Assembly: GCA_011192155.1 (NCBI GenBank) | Contig: DUEK01000004.1 | Span: forward strand, 1-64,000 | DNA length: 64,000 nucleotides | Source: Thermoflexia bacterium | GTDB lineage: Bacteria > Chloroflexota > Anaerolineae > B4-G1 | Reading direction: 5' to 3' | Shown: positions 8,934-63,028 of the stretch, piece by piece | How positions within the stretch are numbered: the first letter of the stretch is position 1 | Layout: every line of letters starts with the position of its first letter | Notes under the pieces: model-generated | Databases searched by the model: none | The model's input: only the letters and a program-made list of their open reading frames with translations | Told to the model about the DNA's origin: nothing | Program-made: the position numbers and the translations under genes

Positions 8934-8955
8934 ATATGGTTTCTCTCTCCATCTG

Positions 8956-8990
8956 AGAAACCGGGTTTTTCTGAAAAAACCCGGTTTCTG
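8956..8990. repeat. REP-like hairpin, family A (AGAAACCGGGTTTTT-CTG-AAAAACCCGGTTTCT)
   Basis: Perfect 15-bp inverted repeat between the thioredoxin-reductase-like stop and the M20 start. Same loop consensus as the copies at 29037 and 48322. Confidence 0.6.
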
Positions 8991-8993
8991 CAC

Positions 8994-9896
8994 CTAACGC
9001 ATCAGCAGATAATGGCAGGCCGAGATAGCCGATTTGGCTCCCTCGCCGATGTGCACCAGCACTTGTTCAGACACGTGAGTCACGTCGCCGGCAGCGAACA
9101 CTCCCGGCCAGTTGGTGGCGCAGTAGGAGTCTACGATGATGTGCCCGCGACTGTCGCAATTCACCCACTCCCGCACCAGCCCCGAGTTAGGAGTACGCGC
9201 CAATTTGACGAATACCCCTTTGACCGGTATCTCGCGCACCTCGCCGTCAGGCATCGCCGCCACGATGTACTCTACAGACGCATCACCGCCCACCTCCTGC
9301 ACCCTCGCATCCTTGATAACTTGTACATTCTCCATCTGGTCGAGTTTGCTGACCAACGGGGTCGTTACCAGCGGTTCGTAGGCCAGTAGATAGACCCGAT
9401 GCGCCTTGTGGGCCAGGCTCGCCACGGCCCACTGGGCGCGCCGTCCCTGCCCGACCACGGCTACATCTTTGCCCAGGAACAAACCGGCGTGGGTATCCAC
9501 CGAATAACTCAATCCCCTGCCGGCCAGGCGCTTTTCGCCCAGGACGTCCAGACGTTGCGGCTTGGCGCCGGTCGCTATAACGAGGGATCGTCCCTCGTAG
9601 TGGTGACCTTGCACGGTTTCCAAGACAAAGTGGTCTTCTACAGGCGTCACCTCGGTCACAGTGTCAAAATCGCGCACAAAGTCCAAATAGTCGAGTTGGC
9701 GACGGAAAGCGTCCAGCAATGTCTCGCCGGTGATGGTCTCCCGGCCCTCCATGTCCTCCACCTGCATGGCGTAGGTGGTCTGGCCGCCCCACTGCGCGGC
9801 GATGATCAGCGTCTCCAGGCGTTGGTTGATGGCTGTCGCGGCGGCAGTGATGCCTGCCGGCCCGCCGCCGATGATGATTAGATCATACATTGTCAT
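8994..9896 (-). CDS. thioredoxin-reductase-like FAD/NAD(P) oxidoreductase lacking the redox CxxC
   Basis: GxGxxG (IIGGGPAG), C-terminal GDV FAD motif. The position of the CATC/CAVC disulfide reads GLSYSVDTHAG. Start at MTMYD with RBS GAGGAGG. Confidence 0.7.
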   Translation of the reverse strand: MTMYDLIIIGGGPAGITAAATAINQRLETLIIAAQWGGQTTYAMQVEDMEGRETITGETLLDAFRRQLDYLDFVRDFDTVTEVTPVEDHFVLETVQGHHYEGRSLVIATGAKPQRLDVLGEKRLAGRGLSYSVDTHAGLFLGKDVAVVGQGRRAQWAVASLAHKAHRVYLLAYEPLVTTPLVSKLDQMENVQVIKDARVQEVGGDASVEYIVAAMPDGEVREIPVKGVFVKLARTPNSGLVREWVNCDSRGHIIVDSYCATNWPGVFAAGDVTHVSEQVLVHIGEGAKSAISACHYLLMR

Positions 9897-29012: not shown

Positions 29013-29036
29013 TGATGACTCCTTTATTGCAAAATC

Positions 29037-29083
29037 AGAAACCAGGTTTTTCTGTAAGCGAAGCGGCAAAAACCTGGTTTCTC
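29037..29083. repeat. REP-like hairpin, family A (AGAAACCAGGTTTTT-17 nt loop-AAAAACCTGGTTTCT)
   Basis: 15-bp perfect inverted repeat. Overlaps the aldolase stop codon and sits upstream of the dehydrogenase RBS. Confidence 0.6.
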
Positions 29084-46858: not shown

Positions 46859-47506
46859 TCAAATTTGTTTGATTTGAGAATCTAGCATCGCGTTGCGCGC
46901 GCGGCGCACTGCGCCTATCCATAGGCCGTTCAACGTCAACGTCATTGCCAGCCCACACAGACCCAGGAAGGCCAAGGGGACGGCGACGGTTTCCATCAAG
47001 ACCAGCAGCGCGCGCCCCACTGATCCCAGGAAAGCGAGCAACTGCACGATGGTCGTCGGGCCGCCGCTGACGAGGGCCGGCAGGATGCCGGCTATATTCG
47101 AAAAATCCGCAAAAATGGGGGCCGGCAGGATGCCGGCTATATTCGAAAAATCCGCAAAAATGGGGGCCGGCAGGATGCCAGTCGCGTCCAAAAAGCCCAC
47201 AAAGATGGGAGCCAGCGCCAGCAGCGCCAGCGACACCGTCCCCAGGGTCAGCGTCGCGCCGCCGACGACCGCGCGACGGGCCTGATCTCGGCGAGCCAGG
47301 CGCGTCATCACCTGTACGCGCACGCGGAGCGGGGGTTGCACCATCGGCGCGGCGGAGAACAGGGTATCAAGTGCCTGCAGGCTCTGCCACCCGGCCTGAC
47401 ACGCGCCGCACGCGGTCAGGTGTTCGTCCAGGAGCGCGCTATCTGCGTCATTGAGACGACCATCCAGCCGCTCGGACATCATTTGACCAGCCTGTTTACA
47501 TCGCAT
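46859..47506 (-). CDS. anti-sigma factor, zf-HC2 type, single-pass membrane, with internal tandem 15-aa repeat
   Basis: HLTACGACQ zinc motif, TM segment. GILPAPIFADFSNIA repeated (45-bp DNA tandem repeat 47077..47181). Overlaps the ECF sigma gene by 11 bp. Confidence 0.7.
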   Translation of the reverse strand: MRCKQAGQMMSERLDGRLNDADSALLDEHLTACGACQAGWQSLQALDTLFSAAPMVQPPLRVRVQVMTRLARRDQARRAVVGGATLTLGTVSLALLALAPIFVGFLDATGILPAPIFADFSNIAGILPAPIFADFSNIAGILPALVSGGPTTIVQLLAFLGSVGRALLVLMETVAVPLAFLGLCGLAMTLTLNGLWIGAVRRARNAMLDSQIKQI

Positions 47507-48080
47507 ACTTGATATCTCCTTGCATTGTCTCTGCCAGGGTGCGCCGGGCGCGAAAGAGCCGAGATTTGACCGCGCTCACCGTCAGGTTCAGCGACTCGGC
47601 GATCTCTTCGTAGGAATGATCGTACCAGTAGAGGAGCGTGATTGCCGCCCTATCGGTGGGTGAGAGAGCCGTTAGCAATTGTTGTATCTGTTGTTCCCGC
47701 TCGTGCTGCACTGCCACGGATTCTGGGTTGGGGTCGGTGCTTATCAAGCGCTCCGTTCGCCCGCCCTGAACAGCGATCTCTTCTGTGAGCGAGAGCCAGT
47801 TGATGCGCCGCCGCCGCAACCGGTCAATGCAGTAGTGTGAGGCAATGGACAGTATCCAGGAATGGAAAGGGCGCTGCGGGTCGTAGGTGTGCAATTTGGT
47901 ATAGACGCGCAGAAATGTCTCCTGGGTCGCTTCATCGGCCTCATCCGTGTTGCTCAGCATCCGGTAGGCCAGGTTGTAGACGGGCGTCTGGTAAGCCACG
48001 ACCAGGCGACCAAATGCGACTTGGTCGCCCGCCCGCGCTAGTTGAATCCACTCTCTTTCTTTTTCGTTTTCGTCGGTCAC
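47496..48080 (-). CDS. ECF (group IV) RNA polymerase sigma factor
   Basis: Sigma-70 region 2 (ETFLRVYTKLHTYDP...FHSWILSIASHYCID) and region 4 (EEIAESLNLTVSAVKSRLFRAR). Confidence 0.85.
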   Translation of the reverse strand: MTDENEKEREWIQLARAGDQVAFGRLVVAYQTPVYNLAYRMLSNTDEADEATQETFLRVYTKLHTYDPQRPFHSWILSIASHYCIDRLRRRRINWLSLTEEIAVQGGRTERLISTDPNPESVAVQHEREQQIQQLLTALSPTDRAAITLLYWYDHSYEEIAESLNLTVSAVKSRLFRARRTLAETMQGDIKYAM

Positions 48081-48321
48081 ACGTGTGCTCCCACCCCGGC
48101 CCGAATACTTCCAGGCAGTCTATATACGCACCAATCTTGGCAGGGTTGCAGGTTATTTTCGTTGTTTAGAGTGGGTTTGTCAAGTTTGAGTTGTCTGGTG
48201 ATTACCCACAAATATGCAGATGTCAGGTGATCGTTTTTTCACCACAGAGGCACAGAGGACACTGAGCCTATATTTCGCATCCTGGCGCAGCCTATTTGTG
48301 TCTTTTTCAAAAAGCGGGGAA

Positions 48322-48356
48322 AGAAACCAGGTTTTTCAGAAAAAAACCTGGTTTCT
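48322..48356. repeat. REP-like hairpin, family A (AGAAACCAGGTTTTT-CAGAA-AAAAACCTGGTTTCT)
   Basis: 15-bp perfect arms. Located in the 750-bp divergent intergenic region, not at a gene end. Confidence 0.6.
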
Positions 48357-48553
48357 CACTGGCCCAGACGGCGAATCTGCCCAAGTTGGGTTTGGAAGAA
48401 CAAAGTGTCAAGCCCCAAATCAAGCTGTCCAGAGGTGCGGAAAATAGGCTGAGACAGGGTATTTTTGTGTTTTCTTTCTCTACCGTACACTTTGTGATCA
48501 CGAATAACACAAATGAACAAATGACACGAATCTGTGTTGAAATGAATAAAAAA

Positions 48554-48674
48554 CAGCAACTCCCGTTATGGGGGAAAAGTCAGGTCGTAACCGCGATTTC
48601 GCAATCGCGCAGGGCGCTTTACGCGGAAAAACAGACGCGATTTGGAAATCGCGGCTACAAAACGGGAATTGCTG
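48554..48674 (+). mobile_element. 121-bp MITE-like element, copy 1
   Basis: CAGCAACTCCCGTT...AACGGGAATTGCTG terminal inverted repeats. Internal nested palindromes. About 95% identical, in inverted orientation, to 62908..63028. Confidence 0.6.
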
Positions 48675-48831
48675 AGCTGTGGTGAGATGTGGGTAATCAC
48701 CAGTGAGATGTGCTTTGGTGCAACACGCCTACACTTTGGGTTTTCATTCAGGTGTGATAAAATAGCGACCTCACAATGGGAACAATACACAGCTTGAGCA
48801 ACAGAGCAATTTCCGGTGGGCGAGGTGCTTT

Positions 48832-49032
48832 GTGATCCGCGTCAATAATCGCGATGAGATCGAGTGGGAAGAGGGATTGACCGTCTCCAATCTGCTGACA
48901 CGGTTTGGCTATACCTTTGTCCACATCATTGTCAAAATCAACGGCGAGGTAATCCCCCGCGAGGCGCACGCCACCCACACCGTCCCCGATGGCGCGGACG
49001 TGCGGGTGATCCACCTCATCGCCGGTGGATGA
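48832..49032 (+). CDS. thiS: ThiS/MoaD-like sulfur-carrier (ubiquitin-fold) protein
   Basis: 66 aa ending in GG. Pattern MIRVN..EIEWEEGLTVSNLL...INGEVIPR...DGADVRVIHLIAGG. GTG start. No thiF/thiG/moaE nearby. Confidence 0.5.
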   Translation: MIRVNNRDEIEWEEGLTVSNLLTRFGYTFVHIIVKINGEVIPREAHATHTVPDGADVRVIHLIAGG

Positions 49033-51607: not shown

Positions 51608-51646
51608 AGCGTTCGGCTCGCGCCGGGAATGAAGAAACCAGGTCTC

Positions 51647-53476
51647 TTATGCGGCGACCGGTATCGTGAATGTGAAAGTTGTCCCTTCTCCAAGCTGGCT
51701 TTTCACCTTCATCTCGCCGCCCTGAAGCTCCACCAGGCTCTTGGTTATGCACAGCCCCAGCCCCGTGCCGGGCATATCGCGCACTGCGGGATTTTCTGAT
51801 CGGAAGAACTTTGTGAATAGTTTTTCCAAATCCTCCGGCGACATGCCAACGCCCGTATCAGAGACGGTACAACTGACATAGCCATTCTGCTGCCGGGCGT
51901 GTACCTTGATGCTGCCCCCCTCAGGGGTGTATTTGTAGGCGTTGCTGAGCAGGTTGATCAAGATTTGCGTCAGCCGCGCCTGGTCAGCGTGGATCAGCGG
52001 CAAGTCCTCCGACATCTCCACCATCAACTGCTGTGATCGAGCCTCGACCTGCCCTTGCGTAGATTGCAAAGCCTCCGTCAGTGCGTCTTTCAGAGCCGTC
52101 GGCTGCATTTCGAGTTTCAGATGCCCGGTCTCAATGCGAGAGACGTCCTGCAGATCTGAAACCTGGATTTGCATACGCTTCACGTTGCTGCTGATGGTTT
52201 GGATAAACTGTTCTTGTTGGGGGGACAATTCGCCAAACATTCCCTTCAATAGCATCTCGGCATAGCCCCGGATGGATGTCATCGGCGTGCGCAGTTCGTG
52301 GGCGACGAACGAGACAAACTCTGTTTTGGCCTGGTTGGCCTGTTGAACTTGATCGTACAACTGGGCGTTCTCGATCGCCATAGCAGCGTGACCCGCTAAC
52401 TGGCCAGCAAATTGAACACGAGACAACTGGAATGCAGCGCCTTTATCCCTTCGCAGGTCCAACAGCCCCACTGTCCGATCCTCGTAACGAATGGGAACCA
52501 GCATCCGTGTGGCCTCGATCAAAATAGGCTCTTGGCTGCTCATAACTCGCTTGACTATATCCGGCTTTGGTTCCGCCAGATTTTTGTCGCCAGCGCGGGA
52601 AACCGTGCTCACGTTGCCGTTTTCGTCCAGGATGCACAATGTCCCCACGTCCGCCCGCGTGGCCTGCATTGCCCAGGAAAGCGCCAGGTCTAGCACCCGT
52701 CCAAGATCCAGGCTGGTGGCGTTCAGTTCCTGATCAATATGTTGCAATGTTGTCAGTTCCTCTACTCGCGCGCTCAAGGCCTGATCGGTCATCGTGTACA
52801 AACGGGCGTTCTCGATGGCGATGGCGGCTTGGCTGGCGAACGCCGTCAGCAAAGGTAAATCAGACTCGGAGAAAACATTCTCTCGAATTCGGTTATCCAG
52901 GTAAAGAGCGCCGATCACCCAGTCCCGGATGTGCAATGGCACGCAGGCAATTGACCGCAGATTGTAACCGACGACACTCTCTTGCCCTGAGAAGCGAGGG
53001 TCACGTTGAGCATTGGTGGTCAGCACCGGTTCCCCTCCATCCACCGCCTCACGCACCACTGTCTGACTGACTTCCAAGTCGGAAGCGTCAACACTCTCCT
53101 GATCAAAGTTCTGAGCTGCCCGGATATCTAGATGGCCTTTTTCGTCCAAGAGCATCAGGCAGCCCCGTTCGGCGCCTGTGAGGTGGATGAGTGAGTCCAT
53201 CACCAACCCCAATGTCTCTGTCAGGTCAAGCGACGAGTTCAAAACTGTGATGATTTCGTAGAGGGTCGCCACCTCCGCTCCCTCCGCCGATCCTCCGGCT
53301 AGGTCCATCACCATCTGTTGCCATTCCTGGAGACGGGCGATCAATTGCTCGTGCGGAATCCCGTGAGGTTGCCTCAGCGCGTTTTGTACTACACGCATGC
53401 TCTCCAGAAGTGTTGCAGTTGTGCCTCCTCCCACTGTGATTGTAGCTTTATTCATTGTGGCTTTTGTCTCCTTCAT
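51647..53476 (-). CDS. orphan sensor histidine kinase with tandem GAF domains (cytoplasmic)
   Basis: H-box AHELRTPMTSIRGY, HATPase N/G boxes. Two GAF domains. No TM. No adjacent regulator. Confidence 0.8.
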   Translation of the reverse strand: MKETKATMNKATITVGGGTTATLLESMRVVQNALRQPHGIPHEQLIARLQEWQQMVMDLAGGSAEGAEVATLYEIITVLNSSLDLTETLGLVMDSLIHLTGAERGCLMLLDEKGHLDIRAAQNFDQESVDASDLEVSQTVVREAVDGGEPVLTTNAQRDPRFSGQESVVGYNLRSIACVPLHIRDWVIGALYLDNRIRENVFSESDLPLLTAFASQAAIAIENARLYTMTDQALSARVEELTTLQHIDQELNATSLDLGRVLDLALSWAMQATRADVGTLCILDENGNVSTVSRAGDKNLAEPKPDIVKRVMSSQEPILIEATRMLVPIRYEDRTVGLLDLRRDKGAAFQLSRVQFAGQLAGHAAMAIENAQLYDQVQQANQAKTEFVSFVAHELRTPMTSIRGYAEMLLKGMFGELSPQQEQFIQTISSNVKRMQIQVSDLQDVSRIETGHLKLEMQPTALKDALTEALQSTQGQVEARSQQLMVEMSEDLPLIHADQARLTQILINLLSNAYKYTPEGGSIKVHARQQNGYVSCTVSDTGVGMSPEDLEKLFTKFFRSENPAVRDMPGTGLGLCITKSLVELQGGEMKVKSQLGEGTTFTFTIPVAA

Positions 53477-62907: not shown

Positions 62908-63028
62908 CAGCAATTCCCGTTTTGTAGCCGCGATTTCCAAATCGCGTCTGTTTTTCCGCGTAAAGCGCCCTGCGCGATTGCGAAATCGCGGCTACGACCT
63001 GACTTTTCCCCCATAACAGGAATTGCTG
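62908..63028 (-). mobile_element. 121-bp MITE-like element, copy 2, with 9-bp target-site duplication
   Basis: Terminal inverted repeats CAGCAATTCCCGTT / AACAGGAATTGCTG. Flanked by direct repeats TCTTGGCTG at 62899..62907 and 63029..63037. Inverted relative to copy 1. Confidence 0.7.

Follow-up and report, generated by a model that had tools for sequence, protein, structure and literature searches.

Nested miniature inverted-repeat transposable elements in a two-way promoter spacer of an uncultured Anaerolineae bacterium

The window analysed here is a stretch of 64,000 nucleotides from contig DUEK01000004.1 of a Thermoflexia bacterium. Its positions 48081-48831 form a 750-bp intergenic region between the gene of an extracytoplasmic function (ECF) sigma factor on the minus strand (47496-48080) and a ThiS-family gene on the plus strand (48832-49032). 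A first-pass annotation had described the region as saturated with repeats, lying where coding-strand polarity flips, and had proposed a nested-insertion hotspot, a composite mobile element or a replication- or recombination-associated locus. All of the features it named were confirmed. [quoted passage not shown] We consider it very probable that the region is an ordinary two-way promoter spacer of about 233 bp enlarged by these nested elements, a reading that includes their presumed mobilisation in trans and the presumed targeting of MITE-X to sites upstream of -35 hexamers. The parts of the nest are given below (TIR, terminal inverted repeat); other contigs and loci are designated by L and a number.

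48187-48194, no strand: left copy of the MITE-X target duplication, TGAGTTGT, matching 48704-48711 at 7 of 8 positions
48195-48703, plus strand: MITE-X, a 509-bp copy with perfect 16-bp TIRs CTGGTGATTACCCACA; modal length of the family 143-145 bp
48195-48266: left part of MITE-X
48262-48266 and 48449-48453: 5-bp duplication CTGAG of N1
48267-48448, plus strand: N1, a 182-bp MITE nested in MITE-X, with ends CCTATATTTCGCA and TGCGGAAAATAGG
48454-48475: middle part of MITE-X
48476-48553, no strand: AT-rich filler of 78 bp, replacing part of the right hairpin arm of MITE-X
48554-48674, plus strand: MITE1, a 121-bp MITE nested in MITE-X, with 14-bp TIRs CAGCAAYTCCCGTT
about 48677 to 48703: right end of MITE-X
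48704-48711, no strand: right copy of the MITE-X target duplication, TGAGATGT

The two arms of MITE-X (48195-48210 and the complement of 48688-48703) are identical at 16 of 16 bp and are separated by 477 nt. This inverted repeat had been reported as 14 bp long; it is present, but its true length is 16 bp. With up to 2 mismatches, the 14-mer matched the window 3 times, against 0.29 matches expected by chance. The direct repeat GTGAGATGTG was found at 48682-48691 and 48703-48712 as described, and its second occurrence consists of the final G of the terminal repeat and the right target duplication copy. The so-called family-D repeat (CACAGAGG/CACAGAGGCACAGAGG) exists as well, at 48243-48258 and not at 48226-48250. 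CACAGAGGCACAGAGG occurs only once in the window and is a conserved internal part of MITE-X, and GGTGAGATGTGGG at 48681-48693 is a conserved subterminal part.

A compact copy of MITE-X (143 bp) was found in L005 at 9349-9491, at an unrelated locus, where its neighbours are a hypothetical gene and a gene for an EF-Tu-like GTPase. The sigma factor of the relative L005 has 77% identity to that of the window. The compact copy starts with TGGTGATTCCCCACAAGTATGCAGAT, holds TTTTTTCATCACAGAGGCACAGAGGACACTGAG, finishes with GTGGTGAGATGTGGGTAATTACCAG and has the direct repeat TACGCTT(G) on both flanks. Since both arms, CACAGAGG and GTGAGATGTG all occur within this one 143-bp copy, they are parts of a single unit. 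An extra solo terminal repeat lies a few bases past one end of MITE-X in L005 (9499-9514) and also in L029 (2181-2199).

The family was then collected by a metagenome scan with a conserved 20-mer from the right end of MITE-X. The scan returned 22 metagenome loci, corresponding to about 20 independent insertions, and the 16-bp ends were common to all; the insertion statistics below use 21 independent insertions. Clear target duplications of 8 bp were seen at 8 or more loci, including CTTTGCGC (L016), GACGCGGG (L027) and G[T/C]TTCAAG (L034); AACCAGAA is split over L017 and L028, and the duplication at L015, TTAAACATC, is 9 bp long. The 143-nt consensus folds into a long hairpin (z = -9.6). Its positions 1-77, 73-99 and 117-143 correspond to positions 1-72, 255-281 and 483-509 of the window copy, which reaches 509 bp because it carries the 182-bp N1, the 121-bp MITE1 and the 78-bp AT-rich filler. 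Foreign insertions are carried by 8 of the 21 copies. The copy at L027 (3528-4067) has an insert of about 400 bp that consists of two tandem units of about 170 bp. MITE-X therefore has the properties of a MITE, namely TIRs, a target duplication of fixed length, a small non-coding body and many copies at unrelated sites.

N1 is itself an element. Its 13-bp ends match at about 11 of 13 positions by eye, and the CTGAG duplication is present in two copies. A second copy of N1, 95.6% identical, occurs in L023/L030 at the same CTGAG of another MITE-X and in the opposite orientation, giving two insertions in total; this inverted copy indicates that N1 itself is mobile. The hairpin at 48322-48356, annotated earlier as family A, was recovered with perfect 15-bp arms and turned out to be the central palindrome of N1. 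Other copies of this hairpin are at 8956-8989 and 29037-29082. The palindrome GAGAAACCNGGTTTTT...AAAAACCNGGTTTCTC also appears without the rest of N1 at gene boundaries (window 8955-8990, 29036-29083 and 51633-51647), where it behaves like a family resembling repetitive extragenic palindromic (REP) sequences.

MITE1 was located exactly as previously annotated, as a 121-bp copy at 48554-48674 with a second window copy at 62908-63028. Its 14-bp TIRs differ at one position, and there are at least 7 copies, including those in L014, L016, L019 and L031. Three copies have 9-bp duplications: TCTTGGCTG at 62908-63028, ATCTGGCGA in L014 and [C/G]CACAGAGA in L019. The L019 copy is nested in a MITE-X, and the L014 copy lies within a MITE-X terminal repeat. 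The copy at 48554-48674 has no duplication, which argues for a later rearrangement at its left junction. The filler beside it (48476-48553) gave no match to the MITE-X consensus, and neither the window nor L001-L034, near-identical contigs aside, contained a second copy. These results indicate that MITE-X, N1 and MITE1 are three new MITE families from uncultured Chloroflexota/Anaerolineae.

The interval between the arms can also be read as cargo of a composite transposon or as a real protein gene, because L001 and L010-L012 have an open reading frame (ORF) annotated as a gene at 48296-48685 (129 aa). This ORF spans three unrelated repeats (N1, filler and MITE1), and its GC content at third codon positions is 0.49, against 0.68-0.87 for most larger ORFs of the window; no Pfam match was found for it. 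L001, which differs from the window by one indel over 12 kb, has a different ORF called, of 156 aa and in another frame (window 48214-48684). A cargo or a real gene is thus extremely unlikely, and the annotated protein of 129-156 aa across the nest is almost certainly spurious, given its third-position GC content and the missing Pfam match.

Outside the nest, both flanks are homologous to the sequences of relatives, while the nest is not. Three promoters were predicted in these native parts.

48123-48149, minus strand: predicted ECF-type promoter of the sigma-factor operon; -35 GCAACC at 48149-48144, 16-nt spacer, -10 CGTATA at 48128-48123
48155-48183, minus strand: predicted sigma-70-type promoter of the sigma gene, TTGACA-N17-GAAAAT
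48728-48764, plus strand: predicted promoter of the thiS-MATE operon; extended -10 TGATAAAAT at 48755-48763, by direct reading of the sequence

In an alignment of six Anaerolineae lineages (window, L004, L005, L008, L036 and L038; sigma proteins 75-100% identical), GCAACC-N16-CGTA was invariant upstream of the sigma gene, and a leader of about 60 nt before the gene was conserved. We take this motif to be an autoregulatory ECF-type promoter because of its resemblance to such promoters. TTGACA-N17-GAAAAT was the only promoter-like match of a consensus scan in the region and is kept in L004, L005 and L038. In L004, a relative with 89% identity, homology stops just past TTGACA, at the point where MITE-X starts. 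A different palindromic repeat made of CACAGAG/CACGGAG units (GGTTACACAGAGTTACACAGAG...CTCTGTGTTACAACC) is found upstream of the same sigma promoter in L004 (100-290); its heptad is common with the interior of MITE-X, and the terminal repeats of MITE-X are missing from it. The predicted thiS-MATE promoter shares 86% identity with the promoter region that precedes the Fer4-AFOR-ThiS-MATE operon in L005 (AFOR, aldehyde:ferredoxin oxidoreductase). Subtracting the 509-bp nest and one duplication from 750 bp leaves a spacer of 233 bp, and the corresponding spacers are 223 bp in L005, 241 bp in L008, 163 bp in L036 and 194 bp in L038. The reconstructed empty site has 30 nt between its two promoters, compared with 34 nt in L005. 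The boundaries of the elements, their target duplications, the multicopy families and the short spacers of the relatives were all observed directly.

A stepwise history can be proposed from these comparisons. The ancestral spacer of about 233 bp would have held back-to-back promoters, with the ECF sigma/anti-sigma operon to the left and thiS-MATE to the right. MITE-X (about 143 bp) would have inserted 11 bp upstream of the TTGACA -35 hexamer of the sigma gene and duplicated 8 bp. This copy may then have served as a neutral landing pad for N1, with the CTGAG duplication, and for MITE1, and a rearrangement would have left the 78-bp AT-rich filler, bringing the whole to 509 bp. The elements were presumably mobilised in trans by transposases encoded elsewhere. 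MITE-X would have been guided to the stretch just upstream of -35 hexamers, about -38 to -46 from the start site, possibly through a DNA distortion induced by RNA polymerase or a contact between transposase and holoenzyme.

The 16-bp arms might instead be paired operators at which a transcription factor controls both divergent operons jointly, perhaps via DNA looping. They are placed symmetrically, each 115-129 bp upstream of a start codon and in the same orientation to its gene, and the motif recurs upstream of genes at other loci. However, all of these other occurrences are likewise pairs of ends of the 143-bp element with target duplications, and at this locus L004, L005, L008, L036 and L038 lack the arms despite the conserved promoters. 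With every motif pair being a pair of element ends and the arms missing from the locus in relatives, the operator explanation was rejected as exceedingly improbable.

Similar weighing applies to the idea that the region is or contains a chromosomal replication origin. The locus resembles a bacterial oriC in its divergent genes, a change of sign in the skew, two DnaA-box-like 9-mers and an AT-rich stretch. It differs in that there is no box cluster beyond the ends of mobile elements and no replication gene nearby, and relatives conserve neither the flip nor the sequence. The 9-mers TTACCCACA do exist in both arms as had been claimed, but they are positions 8-16 of the MITE-X TIRs and occur in every copy of the family, at about 20 other loci. 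Across the window, 14 DnaA boxes with one mismatch were counted (7.1 expected), and of these only the two in the arms lie in the region, with one more inside thiS. The only AT-rich stretch (48476-48553) is inside MITE-X, with none in the native sequence, and the native 233 bp consist of two promoters without any DnaA-box cluster. About 47 larger ORFs of the window were scanned against Pfam and no replication or partition gene was found, in agreement with the earlier remark that no dnaA or dnaN is near; dnaA, dnaN, parAB, gidA and rpmH are all absent from the 64 kb.

The strand polarity was examined in the same context. The flip is real, but less extensive than the roughly 45 of 48 minus-strand genes to the left and 15 of 16 plus-strand genes to the right first reported: our own ORF call gave 35 of 44 and 12 of 13, which is still a strong bias on both sides and speaks for an origin. 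Cumulative GC skew, too, has its minimum at about 46-48 kb, tracking gene orientation. Coding-strand GC skew was 0.032 for co-oriented and -0.011 for anti-oriented genes, a difference in the direction expected for replication but not significant (p = 0.2-0.4; underpowered, with 10 anti-oriented genes). Coding-strand skew is driven by G at codon position 1 (+0.21), which dominates the sign change; the change of sign is probably for the most part an effect of coding-strand composition. In L008, L036 and L038 the genes upstream of the sigma operon are co-directional with it (in L036 they form an 11-gene his/purH block), so the flip is a lineage-specific gene order, unrelated to the repeats. The first-pass annotation had held that the origin idea would fall if relatives had a short conserved spacer to which only mobile elements had been added, and this is what the relatives show. 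Taken together, an origin in this region is very unlikely. On 64 kb a replichore boundary may still lie nearby, and nothing in the 750 bp argues for one.

The placement of MITE-X relative to promoters was then analysed. In the window, the left end of MITE-X is 11 bp from the TTGACA of the sigma gene. In 13 of the 21 insertions a -35-like hexamer, mostly an exact TTGACA, starts 10-12 bp beyond a TIR end, an offset equal to the 8-bp duplication plus 2-4 bp, and in each of these 13 a TATAAT-like -10 follows after 16-18 bp. In two more insertions the motifs stand at offsets 6 and 21, and L023 has an exact TTGACA at offset 10 with no qualifying -10. The background density of the motif in the same loci is 2.3e-4 per position, so that the chance per insertion is 0.0023 and P is about 1e-29. 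The scan pattern lies inside the element; therefore, the flanks were not selected for. Several of the adjacent promoters precede sizeable ORFs in the right orientation, with rplU, glnA, nuoB and an aminoacyl-tRNA synthetase gene as candidates by eye. In the right flanks of L033 and L034, MITE-X abuts promoters that closely resemble each other (TTGACA-N17-TAAACTGAC). No convincing ORF lies downstream of them and Rfam gave no match; these promoters may drive unannotated RNAs.

Whether MITE-X, with a presumed IS50-like parent, is a promoter hunter that picks the 8 bp lying 2-4 bp before the -35 of strong sigma-70-type promoters (about -38 to -46) is a question on which we are evenly divided. The cue would likely be the bending or occupation of promoter DNA by RNA polymerase, and DnaA on the end boxes may act as a host factor. 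A less favoured account, rather unlikely in our judgement, is selection after random insertion, with copies kept where they are harmless or where the element end helps a promoter. MITEs are generally held to intergenic DNA by selection (PMC10969869), and both orientations of MITE-X occur beside promoters. Mere tolerance, however, predicts a broad spread, and 13 of 21 insertions were found at an offset of 10, 11 or 12 bp. The four non-nested MITE1 copies of the same genomes show no such spacing to promoters. The MITE-X end is not A/T-rich, and no A/T-rich, UP-like signal was found in the reconstructed empty sites. The literature search turned up no bacterial transposable element that prefers the upstream edge of sigma-70-type promoters, and none is known to us. 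The literature on promoter-targeting bacterial insertion sequences (IS) or MITEs yielded only activation cases of IS1/IS5 and general reviews, and a search on MITEs in Chloroflexi gave nothing relevant. The 10-12 bp spacing to a -35 is absent from the insertion preferences listed in a 2024 review (PMC10969869).

The ends of MITE-X resemble those of IS50, an element of the IS4 family. The left end CTGGTGATTACCCACAAGT agrees with the outside end of IS50 CTGACTCTTATACACAAGT at 13 of 19 positions (CTG at 1-3, TTA at 8-10 and CACAAGT at 13-19), a level reached by 17 of 200,000 shuffles in what was a post hoc comparison. The IS50 ends were checked on a plasmid carrying Tn5, where IS50 is 1534 bp long and lies beside aph(3')-IIa. 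Both elements have a DnaA-box-like 9-mer at positions 8-16 of their ends, each matching TTATCCACA at 8 of 9 positions. Tn5 is not known to choose sites upstream of promoters with such precision. It makes a 9-bp target duplication, whereas that of MITE-X is mostly 8 bp and is 9 bp at L015. Tn5 ends carry a DnaA site and bind DnaA (PMC3347997), and given the shared position of the 9-mer the boxes of MITE-X may be genuine host-factor sites in the ends of a transposon and not boxes of an origin. Judged from its ends, an IS50-like kinship of MITE-X is a lead only.

Several observations weigh against a spacer enlarged by mobile, promoter-directed elements. Within the species there is no empty site: four near-identical contigs (L001, L010-L012) all hold the complete nest with 0-2 single-nucleotide differences, so mobility at this exact site is deduced from the behaviour of the family. 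No autonomous partner encoding a transposase was found by a search for TIR pairs in the window and the metagenome loci or by a similarity search of plasmids with the MITE-X consensus. The target duplication in the window has one mismatch and resembles the subterminal TGAGATGTG of MITE-X, and a short local duplication could therefore also account for it. The 78-bp filler and the MITE1 copy lacking a duplication are left unexplained. The promoter calls are consensus matches rather than mapped start sites, and the data cannot separate targeting from selection after insertion.

Compared with known prokaryotic MITEs, such as the BOX/RUP/SPRITE clusters of Streptococcus pneumoniae and the Correia elements of Neisseria, the present elements are alike in being small (here 121-182 bp), non-coding and multicopy, with TIRs, target-site duplications, hairpin interiors, intergenic positions and insertion into one another. 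Nested clusters of MITEs are known in S. pneumoniae (PMC10969869). The present elements differ from the known ones in being new sequence families without an Rfam match, and MITE-X has no relevant match in plasmids; no Rfam match was obtained in four MITE-bearing loci, and Rfam and tRNA scans of the window gave none either. Correia elements carry their own promoters, whereas the promoter beside MITE-X is outside the target duplication, in the host flank. The apparent guidance of MITE-X by a functional DNA landmark rather than a strict target sequence has parallels in other site-selective elements (IS1111/IS110 inserting into REP sequences or MITEs, group II introns of class IIC inserting after terminators, and Tn7 at attTn7), but the landmark of MITE-X would be the upstream edge of sigma-70-type promoters. 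The elements are therefore new families of a well-known kind, and only the promoter-proximal placement of MITE-X goes beyond the ordinary.

For a spacer that looked like an origin, the result is deflationary: nested MITEs in a promoter region, with a spurious gene annotated across them. It also shows that the terminal repeats of transposable elements can be mistaken for DnaA boxes and lead origin prediction astray. The three MITE families of uncultured Anaerolineae are now defined and can be masked or annotated. If the placement of MITE-X reflects targeting, it would be a way of selecting targets that is new among bacterial transposons, and it would naturally mark strong promoters in organisms that lack transcriptome data. 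Such an element would be a bacterial counterpart of the promoter-targeting elements of eukaryotes and a ready-made means of promoter rewiring or insulation.

The genes around the region were also identified. After the sigma gene, the minus strand encodes a zf-HC2 anti-sigma factor, a toast-rack/LiaF-like protein and a bactofilin-like protein. This sigma/anti-sigma/toast-rack/bactofilin-like module is conserved, and its upstream neighbour varies among lineages. The sources of the sigma-factor homologues are named as Chloroflexi/Anaerolineae metagenome-assembled genomes, and a 12-kb metagenome contig in ENA matches the window with 99.9% identity. MATE and M24-peptidase genes come after the 66-aa ThiS-family gene on the plus strand; a scan of genome contigs with the MATE protein gave an irrelevant Lactobacillus as its sole match. 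Comparison of L005 (1168-4054) with window positions 48712-49032 showed that the homologous promoter of L005 drives Fer4, AFOR, ThiS and MATE genes. In the window Fer4 and AFOR are missing and the promoter directly abuts thiS, which amounts to a loss or gain of genes at one promoter. Finally, BLAST self-matches 45 bp apart at about 47074-47179, inside the anti-sigma gene (46859-47506), point to a 45-bp tandem repeat.

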